Counted from the stretch's first letter, positions 34,770 to 44,531 are shown. The stretch is 64,000 nt of DNA from Deltaproteobacteria bacterium (GCA_019313905.1 JAFDAI010000001.1:20275-84274), one strand, 5' to 3'. The notes: a model not told the origin generated them from the sequence alone. Translations and numbers: made by a program.

Positions 34770-36077
34770 TTAACGCCTTCTACCCATCCTGCCCTTTTTC
34801 ATAAATCCTTCGTACTGCCTGGTAAGCATGTGGGTTTCTATCTGACCGGCGGTGTCAAGGGCAACCCCGACAACTATAAGAAGTGCCGTACCTCCAAAAT
34901 AAAAAGGAACATTAAACTTACTTATAAGGATGCTTGGAAGAACACAAACAGCGGACACATATATGGCGCCACTGAAGGTAAGTTTCGTCAGGACACTGTC
35001 TATATACTCGGCGGTTTTTTTACCGGGTCGTATACCCGGCACATAGCCGCCATGTTTTTTCATATTGTCGGCAACATCCACCGGATTGAATGTAACGGCT
35101 GTATAAAAATAACAGAAGAATATTATAAGTGCGACGTAAAGCAACTCGTATACCAGCCTGCCAGGCATCAGGAACCCCGCCATTATTTTCATCCACGGAT
35201 GAGGGATAAAATTGGCAATAGTAGCGGGAAACATGATGATGGATGAGGCGAAAATCGGTGGAATAACACCCGCTGTATTAACCTTCAGAGGCAGATGCGT
35301 TGTCTGGCCGCCATACATCTTTCTCCCGACAACCCTTTTCGCGTACTGCACAGGGATCCTCCTCTGCGCACTCTCGACAAATACGATCACACCGACAACA
35401 CCAACCATCATTATTGCCAGGAGCACAACAAAGAATATTCCCATCTCACCTGTAGATAACAGGCGGAAAGTATTCACAACGCCAGCGGGCCCTCTGCATA
35501 CTATACCGGCAAAGATAATCAGGGATATTCCGTTACCTATCCCTTTCTCCGTAATCGTTTCTCCCAGCCACATGATAAACGACGTACCTGCCGTCAGGGT
35601 AATGACCGTCATCAGGCGAAAAGCCCACCCTGGTGTGATAACAACCGACAAACCCGAAGGCCCAGCCATGTTTTCTAAACCGACCGCTATCCCGAACCCC
35701 TGTATGATGCTCAGAAGAACTGTGCCATATCTCGTATATTGGGTTATCTTTCTTCTACCCGCCTCTCCCTCTTTAGACAATTTTTCAAGGTGAGGAACGG
35801 CAACGGTGAGCAACTGGAGGATAATGGATGCACTGATATAGGGCATAATTCCCAAGGCAAATACGGAGAGTCTGCTCAGCGCGCCTCCCGCAAACATGTC
35901 AAAGAGCCCGAGAAGGGAGTTTTGCGCCTGCGCAAAGAAGGCGGCAAGGGCCTGCGTGTCTATACCGGGCGTGGGCACATGCGCACCTATCCTGTAAACG
36001 GCAAGGAGAAAGAAAGTAAACAGTATCTTCTTCTGCAGTTCCGGAATCTTTGTTATGTTCTTAAAGCCGCCTATCAT
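34770..36077 (-). CDS. secY: Preprotein translocase subunit SecY
   Basis: [21 protein letters not shown]. The ATG overlaps the rplO stop by 1 nt (TAATG). The listed ORF begins 54 nt further upstream. Confidence 0.95.
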   Translation of the reverse strand: MIGGFKNITKIPELQKKILFTFFLLAVYRIGAHVPTPGIDTQALAAFFAQAQNSLLGLFDMFAGGALSRLSVFALGIMPYISASIILQLLTVAVPHLEKLSKEGEAGRRKITQYTRYGTVLLSIIQGFGIAVGLENMAGPSGLSVVITPGWAFRLMTVITLTAGTSFIMWLGETITEKGIGNGISLIIFAGIVCRGPAGVVNTFRLLSTGEMGIFFVVLLAIMMVGVVGVIVFVESAQRRIPVQYAKRVVGRKMYGGQTTHLPLKVNTAGVIPPIFASSIIMFPATIANFIPHPWMKIMAGFLMPGRLVYELLYVALIIFFCYFYTAVTFNPVDVADNMKKHGGYVPGIRPGKKTAEYIDSVLTKLTFSGAIYVSAVCVLPSILISKFNVPFYFGGTALLIVVGVALDTAGQIETHMLTRQYEGFMKKGRMGRRR

Positions 36078-36517
36078 TAAACAACCTCTATCGTACCGCC
36101 TGAAGCCTCTATCTTTTCCCTGGCACCGCAACTTATACTATTGACTCTCAATGTTAATGGGTAGTCTATACTTCCATTGCCAAGCACTTTGATTCCATCA
36201 CCACTGTCTTTAACAATGCCGCTCGTTACCAGGGCATCCGCGTCGACGACCGAATCCTTCGGGAATGCGTTTAACTGGCCGATATTAACAATAACAATAT
36301 CTTTCCGGAACCTGTTGTAAAACCCTCTTTTCGGCAACCTTCTCGTAAGGGGCATCTGTCCACCTTCGAATCCGGGCCTGACACCTCCACCCGAACGAGA
36401 GTTCTGCCCCTTATGGCCCCTGCAGGATGTTCCTCCATGGCCTGAACCATCGCCACGTCCCACCCTTTTTTTCGTCTTAGTGGACCCTTCTGCAGGCCTC
36501 AATTCGTTCAGCTTCAT
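36077..36517 (-). CDS. rplO: 50S ribosomal protein L15
   Basis: [22 protein letters not shown]. Confidence 0.95.
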
Positions 36518-36705
36518 ATATCCATCTCACATTCTTCCGCAGAAACCAGGTGTGAAATCTTGTTGATCATGCCTCTAATTTCCGGAGTGTCCTTCAGATA
36601 AACTGTTTTATTCAACTTCTCAAGTCCCATCCCACGGAGTACTTTTCTCTGTTTCTCAGGTCTTCCTATAAGACTCTTGACAAGTTTGATCTTAAGTTGT
36701 TTCAA
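36514..36705 (-). CDS. rpmD: 50S ribosomal protein L30
   Basis: [25 protein letters not shown]. Overlaps rplO by 4 nt. Confidence 0.93.
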
Positions 36706-36731
36706 AACCCATACCTCAACATAACATCTTT

Positions 36732-37232
36732 TTAGATTTCAGCGATATCTTTTCCCCGCAGCGCGGCTATCTCTGCAGGATTTCTCAAGTTCCTAAGCCC
36801 CTTCATCGTTGCCTTAACAAGATTATGGGGATTGTGCGAACCTAAACATTTGGTTAATATATTCTGAACCCCTGCTACCTCAAGGATAGCCCTGACAGCA
36901 CCCCCGGCTATAAGACCCGTACCTTTGGAAGCAGGCTTCAAAAGAACTCTCCCTGCTCCGTAATGCCCTATTACCTCATGGGGTATGGTTCCATCCGCAA
37001 TGGATACTTTAACAATGCTCCTTTTGGCCATCTCCATACCCTTCCTGATAGCCTCAGGAACCTCATGGGCCTTTCCCAGCCCTACGCCTACAGAACCATT
37101 CCCGTCACCGACCGCCACCACGGCACTGAATCTAAATCTTCTGCCGCCCTTTACCACTTTGGCAGTCCTTTTGATCTTTATAACCTTGTCAAGCAGTTCG
37201 CTTTCTTCCATATCTTCCTTATCCAGATCCAA
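36732..37232 (-). CDS. rpsE: 30S ribosomal protein S5
   Basis: [34 protein letters not shown]. Confidence 0.96.
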
Positions 37233-37236
37233 AGAT

Positions 37237-37605
37237 TTATAATTTTACGCCCATTTCCCTTACACCTTCAGCAAGGGACTTCACCCTTCCATGATAAAGG
37301 AATCTGCCCCTGTCAAAGACGGCCTCTTTTATGTTTTTTGATAACAAGTCCTTCGCCAACAATTTTCCGACTTCCCTGGCCGTTTCAGTTTTTTTGAGAC
37401 CTTCCGGATTCCCTTTAAGCTCTTTATTCAACGCCGATGCCTGAGCCAGCGTTTCCCCTGTATCATCGGCGATCGCCTGAACATATATATATCTGGAACT
37501 ACGAAAGACCGAAAGACGCGGCCGCACCTGTGTGCCATATATCTTGATCCTAACTCTTCTTGCGCGCCTCTCCCTTATCTTTTCCAATTTCTTTATCGAT
37601 GCCAC
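37237..37605 (-). CDS. rplR: 50S ribosomal protein L18
   Basis: [37 protein letters not shown] lies 5 nt before GTG 37605; the listed ORF extends to 37641. Confidence 0.92.
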
Positions 37606-37657
37606 AGCAACTCCCCTACAATAGTTTTGAACGCCTCGCAAAAACTCAAGGCCCGAT

Positions 37658-38197
37658 TTATGTCCCGGCAGACTTCCCTACTTTCTTTCTAACATATTCG
37701 CCTGCGTATCTGATCCCCTTGCCCTTATAAGGCTCGGGCTTCTTTAGATCTCTTATCTCTGATGCAACCCTGCCGACAAGCTCCTTATCTATACCGGAAA
37801 CCACAACGTTAACCTGCTTGTCAACTTTCACCGTTATTCCTTCCAGTATCTTATATTTCACTGGATCAGAGTAACCGATGAGCAAAACAAGCGTATCGCC
37901 TTTTACCTCTCCACGGTATCCGACGCCGACTATCTCCAGAGACTTCTCAAATCCCTTGTTCACACCCGTTACCATATTGGCAACCAGTGTTCTTACAAGA
38001 CCATGCAGCGATTTTCCCTTTCTATCATCAGACCCTGTACTTACAAGGATCACATTCCCCTCTAAAATGACTTCAACTCCCTCAGGGATTCTTCTGGAAA
38101 GGGTCCCTTTGGGGCCCTCTACTATTACCAGAGAACCGTCCCTTCTGACTTTTACACCATCAGGAATCTCTATCGGTTTCTTGCCAATTCTCGACAT
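37658..38197 (-). CDS. rplF: 50S ribosomal protein L6
   Basis: MSRIGKKPIEIPDGVKV. Confidence 0.96.
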   Translation of the reverse strand: MSRIGKKPIEIPDGVKVRRDGSLVIVEGPKGTLSRRIPEGVEVILEGNVILVSTGSDDRKGKSLHGLVRTLVANMVTGVNKGFEKSLEIVGVGYRGEVKGDTLVLLIGYSDPVKYKILEGITVKVDKQVNVVVSGIDKELVGRVASEIRDLKKPEPYKGKGIRYAGEYVRKKVGKSAGT

Positions 38198-38235
38198 GAA
38201 TAAATCTCCCGCCTCATCTTATCAGCCAACTCTTT

Positions 38236-38640
38236 TCACCACACATTGCAGAGGATTTCACCGCCCACGTTCAGCGTCTGCGCCTGTTTATCAGTCATGA
38301 TTCCCTTGGAGGTCGAAAGGATAGCCACCCCATATCCGTTCAAAACCCTGGGAATATCCTGGCTGCCGGAATATACTCTCCTGCCTGGCTTGCTCACCCT
38401 CTTTATACCCGTTATCACGTTATCCTTTGCGCCTGAATATCTTAAATGTATCCGCAACATACCATATGGCTTCTTGTCACCTTTTCTGACATCAAATCCG
38501 TTTATATATCCCGCGTCTTTTAACACCTTCGCAAGGCTCAAATTCACTCTCGACAGCAACACGTCCACATTCTTAAATTTCATGCGATTCGCGTTTCTGA
38601 TTCTTGTCAGCATATCGGCAACGGGATCGGTCATCCCCAT
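38236..38640 (-). CDS. rpsH: 30S ribosomal protein S8
   Basis: TDPVADMLTRIRNA. AAGGAG lies upstream. Confidence 0.96.
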   Translation of the reverse strand: MGMTDPVADMLTRIRNANRMKFKNVDVLLSRVNLSLAKVLKDAGYINGFDVRKGDKKPYGMLRIHLRYSGAKDNVITGIKRVSKPGRRVYSGSQDIPRVLNGYGVAILSTSKGIMTDKQAQTLNVGGEILCNVW

Positions 38641-38652
38641 TTTGCTTCTCCT

Positions 38653-38838
38653 TTACCAGCTTGATTTTATAACACCCGGGATCTCTCCATTGAGTGAACG
38701 TTTTCTCAGACATATCCTGCACATATCAAATTTCCTGTAATAAGCGCGAGGTCTTCCGCATAACGGACACCGATTATACTCCATGACGGGAAATTTCTTT
38801 TTCGCCTTGGCTTTTGCTATCAAGGATTTTTTTGCCAC
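38653..38838 (-). CDS. rpsN: 30S ribosomal protein S14, type Z (zinc-binding, 61 aa)
   Basis: (GTG)[15 protein letters not shown]...[29 protein letters not shown] lies 6 nt before GTG 38838; the listed ATG 38844 has no spacer. Confidence 0.92.
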
Positions 38839-38850
38839 ACCCATTCTCCC

Positions 38851-39390
38851 CTAATTACGAAATGGAACTCCCATTAACTTCAAAAGTTGCCTTGCCTCGT
38901 CGTCTGTTTCAGCCGTCGTGACAATAGTTATATTCAACCCTTTAACCTTTTCGATCTTGTCATAATCGATCTCGGGGAAGATATAATGTTCGTTAATCCC
39001 CATGGAAAAATTCCCCCTGCCATCGAATGATCTAGGAGAAACCCCCCTGAAGTCTCTGACCCTGGGGATGGCAACACTGACAAGCCTGTCAAAAAACTCG
39101 TACATTTTCTCCTGTCTCAAGGTCACCATACATCCTATTGACATACCTTTACGCAGTTTAAAAGTGGCAATCGATTTGCGCGCTTTGGTAACAACAGGCA
39201 TCTGACCCGCAATCATGGCAAGTTCGGAGACGGCATTATCAAGTATCTTGATATTCTGTATCGCCTCACCCAGGCCCATATTAACCACAATCTTTTCAAG
39301 CCTGGGAACCTGCATAGGGTTTTTATATCCAAGCTCCTTGATCAATGCGGGCATTACTTCTTCTTTATAATATTTCTTTAATCTGGCCAT
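38851..39390 (-). CDS. rplE: 50S ribosomal protein L5
   Basis: [43 protein letters not shown]. Confidence 0.96.
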
Positions 39391-39423
39391 TTGTCATCCA
39401 CGCTCGTTAATCCTACACCATTT

Positions 39424-39627
39424 TCAATTATTACTTTCAAATATCAGATTATCTATTTCACGGAACAGTGCTGCCGCTTCTTTCCATTCGGCACTCCCTC
39501 TCGAGTTGTCCACATGACTTCCGCTTTCGCACCCCTTTGCATCTCTTTCAAGGATCCGTTCTACCATTTTTTGGCGTTCGGCAAAAAGTGCTTTCTTGTC
39601 TATAGTTTCTTTTGCTTTCTCATCCAT
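39424..39627 (-). CDS. Hypothetical 67-aa charged protein encoded between rplX and rplE
   Basis: ATG 39627 is preceded by AAAGGGGA with a 6-nt spacer. Same strand as the spc operon, Lys/Glu-rich. I recognise no family. Confidence 0.45.
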   Translation of the reverse strand: MDEKAKETIDKKALFAERQKMVERILERDAKGCESGSHVDNSRGSAEWKEAAALFREIDNLIFESNN

Positions 39628-39727
39628 TTTCCGTCCCCTTTCTCTGCCTTTCTGAAATTCAGTCCCACCTTTTCTTGATCCTTCGCTCTTTTAATTCCGA
39701 TTACTTAGGCTCCTAATCTCTACCTCT

Positions 39728-40039
39728 CTATTCATCCAACAACTCTTGGCATTTTTTACAGATACGCACCTTCTTGCCATCCTCCAGCACCTTGTGCCCT
39801 ATCCTTATACCGGTATCACATTTGTTACACACAAGCATGACATTGGACACATGGAGCGGGGCTTCTTTTTCCAATATTCCACCCTTGCCGGTTGCATCGG
39901 GTTTCTGGTGTTTTTTTATCAGGTTCACCTTTTCGATTACAATACGGTTTTTGTCTCTGATCACAGTGAGCACTTTGCCGGTTTTCCCCTTCTCTCTGCC
40001 GGCTATTATCTTTACTGTATCATCTTTCTTTATATGCAT
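39728..40039 (-). CDS. rplX: 50S ribosomal protein L24 (with C-terminal CxxC...CxxC)
   Basis: MHIKKDDTVKIIAGREKGKTGKV (KOW motif). The C-terminus is CNKC-x19-CKKC. The listed ORF extends to ATG 40060; 40048 is another possible start. Confidence 0.93.
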   Translation of the reverse strand: MHIKKDDTVKIIAGREKGKTGKVLTVIRDKNRIVIEKVNLIKKHQKPDATGKGGILEKEAPLHVSNVMLVCNKCDTGIRIGHKVLEDGKKVRICKKCQELLDE

Positions 40040-40170
40040 TCGCTGCATCTCCAATACCATGAAACCCTTGCAAAAGGTCTCCCTTTGAGGGAATATTCCC
40101 TAAAGTTCTCTTGAATTTTATTCAAAAATTAAACAGGTTGCGAAGTCCATCTGCGGTGGATTCCAATCTC

Positions 40171-40539
40171 TTATATCACTTCCGGGGCAAGAGAGACTAT
40201 TTTCATAAACTGTTTTGCCCGAAGTTCCCTGGCAACCGGTCCGAATATTCTTGTGCCGAGAGGTTCAAACTGATCATTTATCAGGACAGCAGAATTCTCG
40301 TCAAACTTGAGATACGAACCATCGCTCCGGCCGATTTCCTTTCTCGTTCTCACGACAACAGCCTTCAGCACGTCTCCCTTCTTCACCTTCGAGTTGGGAA
40401 TCGCCTCCTTTACCGAAACCACGATAACATCTCCAACGCGCGCGTATCTCCTTTTCGAACCACCAAGAACTTTTATACAATAAACCTTTTTAGCTCCAGA
40501 ATTGTCCGCTACCCTTAAAAAGGTTTGCATCTGTATCAT
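40171..40539 (-). CDS. rplN: 50S ribosomal protein L14
   Basis: [28 protein letters not shown]. Confidence 0.96.
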
Positions 40540-40566
40540 AACAAAAACCCCGCCGCTATATTCCTG

Positions 40567-40824
40567 TTATTTCGCCTTTTCCAATATCTCACACACCCTC
40601 CACCGCTTTTCTTTGCTGAAAGGGCGTGACTCGACAATCAATACTTTATCGCCCATGCCACAGCTGTTTTCCCTGTCATGGGCCTTGTATTTTACGTGTC
40701 TTTTTATATATTTGTGAAATCTGGGATGCTTAACCAGCCGTTCCGTCAGGACGACGACTGTCTTGTCCATTTTGTCACTTACTACCATCCCCTGTATGCT
40801 TCTCTTGTTGCCACTGTTGTTCAT
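40567..40824 (-). CDS. rpsQ: 30S ribosomal protein S17
   Basis: [39 protein letters not shown]. Confidence 0.95.
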
Positions 40825-40825
40825 A

Positions 40826-41020
40826 TTATCTCGGGTCTCCCCTTTCCCTGAGAACGGTTTTTACACGAGCCACATCCCTCTTCACACTCTTTATTACAGA
40901 GGGAGACTCCAGCTGTCCGGTTGCAAACCTGACGCGAAGCCTGAAGAGCTCTTCAATGAAACTCTTTTCCCTTTCTTTTAACTCATCAACGCTGAGGTCT
41001 CTAGCTTCTTTAATTTTCAT
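40826..41020 (-). CDS. rpmC: 50S ribosomal protein L29
   Basis: [29 protein letters not shown]. The listed ORF extends upstream into rplP. Confidence 0.92.
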
Positions 41021-41432
41021 CAAATATCTCCCTGGAAAGAAATCTGGTCGCAACAGGAAGTTTGTGCGATGCCAACCTCAATGCCTCGCGGGCAACATCT
41101 TGCGGAATTCCCTCCATTTCATAGAGAACCATGCCCTTTTTGACTATGGCAACCCACTCTTCAGGAGATCCTTTCCCCTTTCCCATGCGAGTTTCTGCCG
41201 GTTTTTTTGTTACCGACTTATGGGGAAAGATACGTATCCATATCTTACCGCCACGCCTGACATGACGGGTTATCGCAATACGAGCCGATTCGATCTGCCG
41301 TGCCGTGACCCGGCCACTCTCCATTGCCTGGAGCCCATATTCACCGAAGTCCACTTTGGCGCCCTTGTGGGCCCGGCCTTTTACGCGGCCCTTCTGCAAC
41401 TTCCTGTATTTTACTCTTTTCGGTGCTAACAT
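41010..41432 (-). CDS. rplP: 50S ribosomal protein L16
   Basis: [21 protein letters not shown]. Confidence 0.96.
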
Positions 41433-41439
41433 AATAATC

Positions 41440-42096
41440 CTATCCCTGGGGGCTCAGACTGCCTTTCTTGTCCGGTAAAACCTCGCCATTAAATATCAAG
41501 ACCTTGACGCCTATGATTCCATAGGTTGTACGGGCCTCGGCAAAACCATAATCGATATCCGCCCGCAATGTATGGAGTGGAACTCTGCCCTCTCTATACC
41601 ATTCTTTCCTGGCCATTTCCGCGCCGCCCAATCTCCCCGCGCAGGCCACTCTGATACCCTTGACACCAAACTTCATGGCCGTGGTAACACCCCTCTTCAT
41701 AGCCCGTCTGAAACTTACCCTTCTTACAAGTTGTAAGGCGATATTCTCGGCTACAAGCTGAGCATCTGTCTCCGGCTTGCGTACCTCCAGTATATTTATG
41801 ATGATATCCCCCGTCATGACTCCTTCGAGGTCTTTCTTTACCTTCTCTATTTCCGTCCCTTTTCTCCCGATGATGATGCCGGGACGCGCCGTATAGATGT
41901 TAATCTTGGCCTTGTCGGAAGCTCTTTCAATCTCTATCCTGGATATACCTGCATGGAAAAACTTGTCCTTTATATGTTTTCTGACCCGTATATCTTCATG
42001 GAGCAGCTCACTGTAGTTTCGCTGCGCGAACCACTTTGAGCTCCAGGTCTTATTAATACCCAGCCTGAACCCGATGGGATTTACTTTTTGTCCCAA
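41440..42096 (-). CDS. rpsC: 30S ribosomal protein S3
   Basis: [24 protein letters not shown]. Confidence 0.97.
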
Positions 42097-42115
42097 ACCT
42101 TCACCTCCTTACAGA

Positions 42116-42448
42116 TTACCCTTCACCAAGCACGACCGTTATATGACTTGTTCTTTTCTTTATGGGGGTCGCTCTTCCCTGTGCCCTTGCTCTCCATCTC
42201 TTCAGCGTAGGGCCCTGATCCACAAATATCTCTCTTACGTAAAGTACATTCTCATCCATGTTGGGATTCTGTACCGCATTAGCCATCGCGGATTTCAAAA
42301 CCTTCTGGACAATGCGTGCGGCCTTTTTATGTGTAAATCCGAGCGTCGTATCCGCTTCCTCGGCCTTCTTCCCTCTTATCAGATCAACCACCAATCTTGC
42401 TTTCTGCGGTGATATCCGAACATATTTAGCAACTGCTTTAGTTTCCAT
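42116..42448 (-). CDS. rplV: 50S ribosomal protein L22
   Basis: [21 protein letters not shown]. Confidence 0.95.
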
Positions 42449-42478
42449 CTATCGCAAAACTCCACATACTGATCCTGT

Positions 42479-42763
42479 CTATCTTGTTTTCAGCCTTGTT
42501 TTTCTGTCTCCCGCATGACTGTAAAAGGTTCTCGTTGGCGCAAATTCACCCAGCTTATGCCCAACCATTTCTTCAGTCACATATACAGGGATGAACTTCT
42601 TCCCATTATGTATCGCAAATGTATGGCCTACAAGCTCGGGGGCAACCATGGAACGACGGGACCATGTTTTTATCACCGCCCTGCTCCCTGCAGCCTCCGC
42701 CGACCGCACCTTCTTAAGAAGCTTCTCGTTAATATAAGGACCTTTTTTTATTGAACGCGACAC
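42479..42763 (-). CDS. rpsS: 30S ribosomal protein S19
   Basis: [19 protein letters not shown]...[27 protein letters not shown]. Confidence 0.96.
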
Positions 42764-42766
42764 GCT

Positions 42767-43588
42767 CTACCCTCTTTTCTTCACGATATATTTATCAGAA
42801 TTCCTGTTCTTCCTCGTCTTGTAACCCTTGGTGGGAACTCCCCACGGTGTGCAGGGATGCCTGCCGCCGGACGACTTGCCCTCACCGCCGCCCATTGGAT
42901 GGTCAACAGGGTTCATAACCACTCCCCGAACCTTGGGCCTCTTACCCAGCCATCTTGTCCGGCCCGCCTTTCCGATGCTCAAGTTCTCGTGCTCAATGTT
43001 ACCGATTTGCCCTATTGTGGCCTTGCACCCCATCAGAATTTTTCGGACTTCCCCCGAAGGCAACCGAACCTGGGCATAAGAACCCTCTTTTGCCATAAGC
43101 TGGCCATAGGAGCCGGCACTACGAATCAACTGCCCGCCTTTACCCACTTTAAGCTCAAGATTATGGATCAGAGAACCCAGAGGTATATTTCTCAGAGGGA
43201 TAGTGTTGCCTGTCTTTATATCCTCTTTCTCGCCGCTGATAACAGTATCACCCACTTCAATACCCAGCGGAGCAAGTATATATCTTTTTTCCCCATCCAC
43301 GTAATGGAGAAGCGCTATCCTCGAGGATCGATTCGGGTCATACTCAATAGCCGCTACTTTGGCAGGAATATCCATTTTATCGCGCCTGAAGTCTATAACC
43401 CTGAACTTTCTCTTATGACCGCCGCCGATATGCCTGCTTGTCATCCGCCCCAGATTATTCCGCCCGCCGGTCTTCTTCAGCGGTCTTACAAGACTCTTTT
43501 CAGGCTCAGACTTTGTTATTTCCTCAAAGGTGAACCCGGTCTGAAATCTTCTGCCCGGCGATGTTGGTTTATATGTTTTCAGTGCCAT
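42767..43588 (-). CDS. rplB: 50S ribosomal protein L2
   Basis: [14 protein letters not shown]...GGGHKRKFR...[12 protein letters not shown]. Confidence 0.97.
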
Positions 43589-43611
43589 ATCTTTTTCAAA
43601 ACCCCTTTTTC

Positions 43612-43899
43612 CTATACTCCCTCATAAACCTCGATCGAACCGCCGGGAGCGAGGGTGATTACGGCCTTTTTCCAGTTACGCCTTCTGCCGGTAATTCTCC
43701 CCAGTCTTTTCTTTTTGCCGGTCATATTCATGGTGTGAACATTCACCACCTGAACCTTGAATATCTTTTCCACGGCATTACGTATTTCTATCTTGGTTGC
43801 TCTTCGATCCACCTCGAAAAGATGTTTATTCTCTTCATCCCTGGCAATGGTGCTTTTCTCTGTAACAAGCGGTTTTCTTATGACGGAATATATATCCAT
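43612..43899 (-). CDS. rplW: 50S ribosomal protein L23
   Basis: [14 protein letters not shown]. Position between rplD and rplB. Confidence 0.94.
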
Positions 43900-44531
43900 T
43901 ATGACAACAACGCCCCTTCTATCTTTTTCACAGAGGGTTCCAGGAGAACAAGATTGTCATACTTGAGCAGATCATACACATTGATGCCCTCTGATCGCAT
44001 CATCTTTATATCCTTGATATTTCTAGAAGATTTCTCCAGGATGGCATTCTTCTCATCCAGCACAAAAAGGGTCTTGTCAAGCTCAAGCCTGTCAAGAATC
44101 TCCTTGAATTTCTTCGTCTTTATTTCATCCATGGGGAAGTCCCTGAGAATTATCACCTTGTCCTCTTTAACCTTCATACTCAGAGCGGATCTCAACGCGG
44201 CTCTTCTTACCTTTTTCGGAACCTTGTAAGAATAATCTCTGGGCTTGGGACCAAATACAATCCCGCCACCTCTCCACAGGGGAGATCGGTTCGTGCCGGC
44301 CCTTGCTCTTCCTGTCCCCTTCTGGCGCCACGGTTTCCTGCCGCCACCGCGCACATCACTTCTGCCCTTTGTGGAAGCACTGCCCTGTCTTCTGCACGCA
44401 AGCTGCATCTTGACAACTTCATAAAGTATATGCTCATTAACTTCGGCGCCAAAGACACGATCACTGAGTTCCAGCTCGGCTATTTTAGTTTTCTCTATAT
44501 CATATACATTCAAAACCGGCATTTTTACCAC
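43899..44531 (-). CDS. rplD: 50S ribosomal protein L4
   Basis: KGRSDVRGGGRKPWRQKGTGRARAG. Confidence 0.95.
   Translation of the reverse strand: MVKMPVLNVYDIEKTKIAELELSDRVFGAEVNEHILYEVVKMQLACRRQGSASTKGRSDVRGGGRKPWRQKGTGRARAGTNRSPLWRGGGIVFGPKPRDYSYKVPKKVRRAALRSALSMKVKEDKVIILRDFPMDEIKTKKFKEILDRLELDKTLFVLDEKNAILEKSSRNIKDIKMMRSEGINVYDLLKYDNLVLLEPSVKKIEGALLS

Follow-up and report, generated by a model that had tools for sequence, protein, structure and literature searches.

Our analysis shows that the spc operon in the analyzed stretch of Deltaproteobacteria DNA (64,000 nucleotides; here, the window) carries, between the genes for the ribosomal proteins uL24 (rplX) and uL5 (rplE), an insert of about 322 nt with a 67-codon open reading frame (ORF), and we put the probability that this ORF is protein-coding and under selection at about 0.85 to 0.9. 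Few gene arrangements are as rigid as those of ribosomal-protein operons, and the gain of lineage-specific ribosomal proteins is poorly understood. The locus offers a clean, datable short insert with a selected ORF, an empty ancestral site that is kept in sister species, and a second, independent acquisition of this orphan family by what was likely the transfer of the cassette alone.

The genes of the S10-spc row are encoded on the minus strand of the window. The rplX gene (39728..40039, minus strand; 103 aa), which is upstream of the insert, matches the Pfam families ribosomal_L24 (3.2e-28) and KOW (2.7e-09). Its stop codon occupies 39728-39730. Relatives do not conserve the in-frame codons that precede the ATG at 40039 (MHIKK), and this ATG is therefore the true start. 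The rplE gene (38851..39390, minus strand; 179 aa; Pfam Ribosomal_L5 and Ribosomal_L5_C) is downstream of the insert. The first-pass annotation had described a separation of 337 nt between the two genes and, within it, a same-strand ORF of 67 codons preceded by a Shine-Dalgarno sequence, and both observations are confirmed. The gap (39391-39727) consists of a leader of 100 nt with 77% purine from the rplX stop to the small ORF (39628..39727, minus strand), the ORF itself (39424..39627, minus strand; 67 aa), whose translation is the peptide given in the first-pass annotation, and a tail of 33 nt from its stop to the rplE start (39391..39423, minus strand). The Shine-Dalgarno sequence, AAAGGGGA, is located in the leader at 39634-39641, 6 nt before the ATG. 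An alignment of insert-bearing and insert-free junctions shows that the last 12 nt or so of the tail are the ancestral spacer with the Shine-Dalgarno site of rplE. The insert proper (39403..39724, minus strand) corresponds to 322 alignment columns that are gapped in insert-free loci, with boundaries accurate to within a few nucleotides; it is bordered by the rplX stop on one side and by the former ribosome-binding site of rplE on the other. The other spacers in the gene row of the window measure 3-87 nt, except that between rplN and rplX (see below).

Two side observations concern the neighboring genes. The cysteines C71, C74, C94, and C97 in the C-terminal part of uL24 are invariant across the 18-19 aligned relatives, and rplX gives weak zinc-ribbon-type matches in Pfam; the uL24 of the window is probably a zinc-binding form. 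Furthermore, a crude greedy ORF tiling yielded no normal rplO between rpmD and secY and instead an over-long secY frame (36271-36456 and 34770-36131, minus strand), which is probably an artifact of the greedy tiling.

By its length the ORF barely stands out: among 5000 dinucleotide-preserving shuffles of the 337-nt gap, 4.1% yield an ORF of 67 or more codons on the same strand. It is therefore the comparison with relatives that carries the case for a gene. Seven distinct insert sequences, those of five genomes and of the contigs L040 and L045, were compared at the DNA level. The ORF is open in all seven (with GTG as the start codon in G011), and the GG core of the Shine-Dalgarno sequence is invariant in all of them, while the leader in which it is embedded carries indels. 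Codons 1-62 contain no indels at all; between 0 and 12 positions of the leader are gapped in any one pair, and G011 shows an indel of 37 nt in the tail.

The substitution pattern is that of a coding sequence in this one frame. The dN/dS ratio of the ORF is 0.18-0.39 in 20 of the 21 pairs, the exception being the closest, nearly identical pair (L011 and L045), which differs by 1 synonymous and 4 nonsynonymous changes. Since these values are several-fold above those of the neighboring genes (0.06-0.26 for L24 and 0.03-0.11 for L5), the constraint on the ORF is moderate. Over seven pairs combined, the ORF frame has a pN/pS of 0.36 and no stop codon in the seven sequences; the other two sense frames have values of 1.29 and 1.22 and contain 3-8 stop codons each. 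Variable columns are distributed over the three codon positions as 18, 16, and 33 (chi-square P of 0.021), and the synonymous excess in the two deepest pairs is significant (Fisher P of 3.1e-05 and 1.2e-04). At the protein level, 25 columns are invariant across 13 sequences, mostly at residues 32-48 and 55-61, and both termini vary. The first-pass annotation had singled out a frame that is unconserved or disrupted in relatives sharing the spacer as the outcome that would tell against its proposal; in the comparison made here, the ORF is conserved, never disrupted, and under in-frame purifying selection in every relative that has the spacer.

Two further candidate frames were rejected. (i) An antisense ORF of 95 codons (39391-39678, plus strand) has a pN/pS of 0.96 and a stop codon in G011, and it owes its existence to the purine richness of the sense strand. 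(ii) An N-terminal extension of the small protein, represented by the 81-aa sequence P0004 with an upstream GTG, is in frame only by way of a 1-nt indel in L040 and is not conserved.

The insert is sparsely distributed. L24 was found in 40 of 41 related genomes, and the L24-L5 junction was inspected in 30 loci. The ORF is present at the junction in G000, G009, G010, G011, and G013, with a spacer of 336-373 nt, and in the remaining 25 loci the L24 and L5 matches are at most 24 nt apart. Within the genus, the insert-free spacer is typically 15 nt long and carries the Shine-Dalgarno site of rplE. A profile search identified the small protein in 5 of 14 genomes of one Syntrophaceae genus, at 71-94% amino acid identity. 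No copy was found in the other nine, eight of which have the short ancestral spacer; the junction of the ninth (G007, 80% complete) was not recovered. Because it was not found in 9 of 14 genomes, the small gene is dispensable within the genus. A lineage-specific ribosomal protein of the bL38, bS22, or bTHX kind would be expected throughout the lineage that carries it; the small protein is present in 5 of the 14 genus genomes.

When the profile search was extended to the whole order, six of 301 genomes were found to be carriers. The sixth, G133, is binned in another family of the order, but its contig is the 5.4-kb record L040 (identical to L057, G133:C1:100-3300; 100% identity). Because L040 groups inside the genus on the tree of the flanking DNA, G133 is probably mis-binned and therefore provides no evidence of a wider distribution. 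Additional metagenomic carriers comprise 12 protein clusters at 79-100% identity and the loci L040 and L043-L045. Six further genomes with weak matches (E values of 0.047-0.8) were judged to be noise. Three Acidobacteriota loci (L042, L046, and L047) share an 8-residue word, which is part of an open frame of at least 553 aa extending beyond the end of the locus, and were judged to match by chance. Carriers and noncarriers co-occur, because contigs from run X7, which have 85% likeness to the window and thus derive from relatives and not from this genome, show both forms: one contig runs through the ORF, and another joins 39395 to 39732 with 14 letters in between, which are those of an insert-free spacer.

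For inference of the history of the insert, a tree of the flanking DNA was built from 2836 columns, from which both insert regions had been removed. In this tree, G000, G009, G010, G011, and L040 form one clade (100/100), whereas G013 is the sister of the insert-free G006 (100/100) and is nested among insert-free species. The approximately unbiased (AU) test rejects a single clade of all insert-bearers (P of 4e-41, at a cost of 135 log-likelihood units), a group that was defined once the pattern had already emerged in an initial protein tree. Over about 3 kb of flanking DNA, G013 and G006 are 92-100% identical per 100-nt window, mostly at least 96%, and the two lowest values adjoin the insert. 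Yet G013 carries the insert and G006 an ancestral-type spacer, and on either side the G013 flank keeps its likeness to G006 up to about 15 nt from the insert.

The insert of G013 is closer to that of G000 (identity of 0.933) than the flanks of the two genomes are to each other (0.868 and 0.886), which argues for a lateral transfer of the cassette alone into G013. In most other pairs the insert is less similar than the flanks, e.g., 0.810 versus 0.910 and 0.941 for G000 and G010. We regard a single origin plus one lateral transfer as likely. The insert would have arisen once, in the ancestor of G000, G009, G010, G011, and L040, and the cassette alone would later have entered the G013 lineage, most likely via recombination among co-occurring relatives. 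The alternative, ancestral presence followed by several losses, each of which restored the ancestral spacer exactly, is less parsimonious. In a tree of the insert only, all three inner branches are unresolved, so that the pairwise identities are the only guide to the donor lineage. All genomes used here are metagenome assembled, and a chimeric assembly of the conserved operon is a possibility to be kept in mind; a second record, L043, has the G013 arrangement at 99.9% identity and may not be independent of G013.

A second insert exists in the same operon. The rplN-rplX spacer (40040-40170, minus strand) is 131 nt long in the window, whereas relatives without the insert have about 36 nt. The additional sequence of roughly 70-95 nt is present in G000, G009, G010, G011, and L040 and is absent from G013 and the insert-free species; G013 thus lacks the second insert common to the five-member clade. 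The region contains two short palindromes and a sigma-70-like match, TTCGCA-18-TAAAAT, at 40144..40115. Its fold has a z score of -1.86 (11 of 200 shuffles are as good), and covariation is seen in only 1 of 22 pairs. An internal promoter or a small RNA element in front of rplX is a possible identity.

The small protein is hydrophilic (GRAVY of -0.7 to -1.1) and acidic to neutral (pI of 4.9-6.6), and the ribosomal proteins L24, L5, and L14 have pI values of 9.6-10.1. AlphaFold2, run with the alignment of 13 sequences, predicts a two-helix hairpin with helices at residues 11-33 and 46-63 (mean pLDDT of 79.6 and pTM of 0.59). The most constrained part is the predicted connecting loop (about residues 32-48), in which the residues of the pattern G-x-E-x-G-S ... 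D-N-S-R-G-S-x-E-W are invariant in the 13 sequences. A complex prediction of the small protein with L24 and L5, based on alignments, gave a score of 0.00 against a mark of 0.32, with the partner poorly folded in at least one run, and so speaks neither for nor against binding.

The first-pass annotation had recognized no family for this protein, and our searches bear it out. A profile search of 1.84 billion representative proteins returned only its own cluster and two long proteins, P0013 (2963 aa, 11 stretches) and P0014 (1126 aa, 2 stretches), which are highly repetitive and were treated as spurious. Pfam assigned no family to the window protein (best E value among the 13 members, 0.096), the best NCBIfam model had an E value of 0.04 (12 bits, compared with a cutoff of 250), the best PHROGs match was not significant (E value of 0.026), and PADLOC did not match the small protein. 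On the structural side, a PDB profile search reached an E value of 0.67 at best, Foldseek found no PDB match at an E value of 0.001 or lower, a VIA-align comparison with 48,161 chains reached a Z of 6.6 at best, in a flat ranking made up of generic hairpins, and the ESM Atlas offered no usable feature match, its structure rows being unrelated helical pieces. Two specific candidates were also rejected: a Spo0E-like helical-hairpin phosphatase, whose model is absent from the Pfam matches of all 13 members at E values up to 10, and a paralog of uL29, for which hhalign gave a probability of 0.2% over 6 aligned columns.

A direct repeat of 43 nt with 72% identity (39451-39493 and 39541-39583) lies within the ORF, in frame and exactly 30 codons apart, and encodes matching parts of helix 1 and helix 2. 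Its offset of 90 nt gives the best 60-nt self-match within 1500 nt on either side, and the internal repeat beats mononucleotide shuffles in four of five species (P of 0.008 or lower), the exception being G010. The repeat hints that the hairpin may have arisen via internal duplication. An origin of the insert by local duplication was rejected, as no other offset within 1500 nt on either side stands out, and apparent repeats at an offset of 226 nt are not supported.

The proposal that the ORF is co-transcribed with the ribosomal genes holds as plausible, because no terminator-like site exists on the operon strand in 38800-40200. Three promoter-like matches, each with 9 of 12 positions, occur on the same strand of this region, in AT-rich sequence. 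The insert is single-copy in its own genome, where the next best match is 24 nt long (E value of 0.2), and its GC content is 0.42-0.43 versus 0.43-0.47 in the neighboring genes. The GC3 value of the ORF is 0.353 versus 0.44-0.58 in the surrounding ribosomal genes, and the purine content of the insert is 67-77%. Hallmarks of a MITE or an IS element were not found, in that there are no terminal inverted repeats (one 12-nt inverted repeat is internal) and no duplication at the junctions, and no relatives of the insert were found on phage, plasmid, or viral contigs. The insert does not have the features of a moron-like autonomous cassette, as it has no terminator of its own and a composition like that of the flanks.

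What the small protein does can be addressed by a leading guess, to which we give somewhat less than an even chance: its function is tied to the ribosome or to translation. It is the operon position that suggests the terms used in the first-pass annotation, according to which the product would be ribosome associated and stoichiometrically tied to ribosomal proteins; its acidic-to-neutral pI and its absence from most of the genus are points against such a link. In the mechanism that we propose, the small gene would be read from the spc operon transcript via its own Shine-Dalgarno site, at a level set by the operon. The product would be a soluble, mildly acidic two-helix hairpin, which may present its invariant loop to a protein partner in the translation apparatus. 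Candidates for this partner would be basic ribosomal proteins or assembly intermediates that originate from the same transcript, and the small protein would then be an accessory or chaperone-like factor and not a core rRNA-binding ribosomal protein. A more far-reaching form of this proposal, which we consider unlikely, is that a ribosomal accessory protein has been caught at birth: a hairpin that may have been built by internal duplication of a single helix-coding unit and was recruited into the spc operon, whose loop binds a freshly made basic ribosomal protein or a pre-50S particle and whose cassette is beneficial enough to have been passed between co-occurring species via recombination and maintained intact.

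In the main rival explanation, the small gene is real and selected and yet unrelated to the ribosome, a hitchhiking cargo gene that benefits from the strong and constitutive expression of the spc transcript; adk, map, and secY have such a position in many bacteria. This explanation is tenable, if doubtful. The protein is acidic and hydrophilic and thus unlike rRNA-binding proteins, the gene is dispensable within the genus, its GC3 is below that of the ribosomal genes, and the cassette appears to move alone between species; in addition, gene insertions account for 77 of the 115 rearrangement events in the operon cluster that are traced in Brandis 2021 (PMC8046335). However, because the insert has no promoter-plus-terminator unit of its own and a GC content equal to that of its flanks, the dosage of the small gene is locked to that of the ribosomal proteins, an arrangement that would be strange and expensive for a small factor unrelated to them, and no partner gene travels with the insert.

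The remaining explanations deny the peptide a role. According to one of them, which we hold to be quite improbable, translation as such matters (ribosomes are kept on the spacer and handed over to rplE), or the spacer is an autoregulatory operator RNA. The S8 protein of Escherichia coli is described as binding a structure in the mRNA that overlaps with the rplE start and as controlling L5 and downstream genes (PMC3616713; PMC2704228), and the 33-nt tail is well conserved among insert-bearers (p-distance of 0-0.24). The synonymous divergence of the ORF is below that of L24 in 19 of 21 pairs and below that of L5 in 14 of 21, which could reflect constraint at the nucleotide level but is largely explained by the late transfer into G013. 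The first-pass annotation had itself offered a regulatory RNA with a fortuitous ORF as an alternative, for which Rfam, folding, and covariation analyses lend no support. Rfam has no match at an E value of 1 or lower in 36000-44000; the spacer folds at -54.8 kcal/mol versus -60.3 ± 4.2 kcal/mol for shuffles (z of +1.32; 91 of 100 shuffles fold at least as well); and its consensus fold has a covariation term of -0.03, with compensatory changes in 2 of 45 pairs. An S8-type operator was sought in the tail plus the first 50 nt of rplE, where 9 weak pairs (-3.27 kcal/mol) and no compensatory changes were found among sequences whose close similarity weakens this negative result. Furthermore, the frame-specific amino acid constraint and the invariant loop would be unexpected if only the act of translation mattered. 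The same one-frame purifying selection makes it very improbable that the insert is nonfunctional or selfish, i.e., filler that arose de novo or what is left of a mobile element, retained only because its removal is neutral or difficult. An origin of this kind would fit the weakly significant ORF length, the patchy distribution within the genus, the in-frame 43-nt repeat, which hints at a recent origin by duplication, and the purine richness, which keeps the antisense 95-codon frame open as well. That antisense frame, however, evolves with a pN/pS near 1 and is interrupted in G011, and the insert has neither terminal inverted repeats nor second copies nor relatives on phage, plasmid, or viral contigs.

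If the small protein is linked to the ribosome, the locus would represent an early stage of the recruitment of a ribosomal protein, and if it was indeed caught at birth, a direct view of how ribosomes acquire new lineage-specific proteins. If it is not linked to the ribosome, cargo genes would be tolerated and exchanged even in the core of the spc operon in bacteria outside the candidate phyla radiation (CPR). Since every carrier is an uncultured bacterium of sediments or seeps, the practical value is limited. Both additional genes in ribosomal operons and small ribosomal proteins specific to a lineage are known already; what is new is the protein family, its location inside the transcription unit of a bacterium that does not belong to the CPR, and the evidence of cassette-only movement. 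In the openly accessible literature that was searched, the S8 operator is the only feature described at the rplX-rplE junction, and no inserted gene is described there.

Among known systems, the protein bL38 of the Bacteroidia bears on the proposed link to the ribosome. The bL38 gene of Flavobacterium johnsoniae is described as lying downstream of those for bL28 and bL33 within a ribosomal-protein operon, and bL38 as binding and stabilizing uL6 and as being conserved across the whole class and critical for growth (PMC11851116); bS22 of mycobacteria is described as a comparable lineage-specific small ribosomal protein (PMC10081302). Like bL38, the small protein is lineage confined and encoded inside a ribosomal-protein operon. 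Unlike bL38, with which it shares no sequence similarity and no informative likeness in structure, it has an acidic-to-neutral pI and occurs in 5 of the 14 species of one genus. By analogy, an accessory role in the manner of bL38 may be guessed at. The ribosomal protein uL29, which is encoded about 1.2 kb upstream in the cluster, resembles the small protein in size (64 versus 67 aa) and in its alpha-hairpin fold class but has the opposite charge and no profile homology to it. The weak Foldseek rows (E values of about 5-9) include ribosome chains of about 57-66 residues, which we take to be uL29.

With the S8 operator, the insert shares its place, as the same rplX-rplE junction of the same operon is the site of a special function in both cases. 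The S8 operator is presented in PMC3616713 as a short structured RNA confined to the Gammaproteobacteria, whereas the insert consists of 322 extra nucleotides that are unstructured, have no Rfam match, and code for a selected peptide. As to the mode of acquisition, the exchange of rpsN in Streptococcus pneumoniae, in which a single gene of the spc operon is reported to have been replaced while its neighbors were unchanged (PMC8046335), is comparable to the likely cassette-only transfer into G013.
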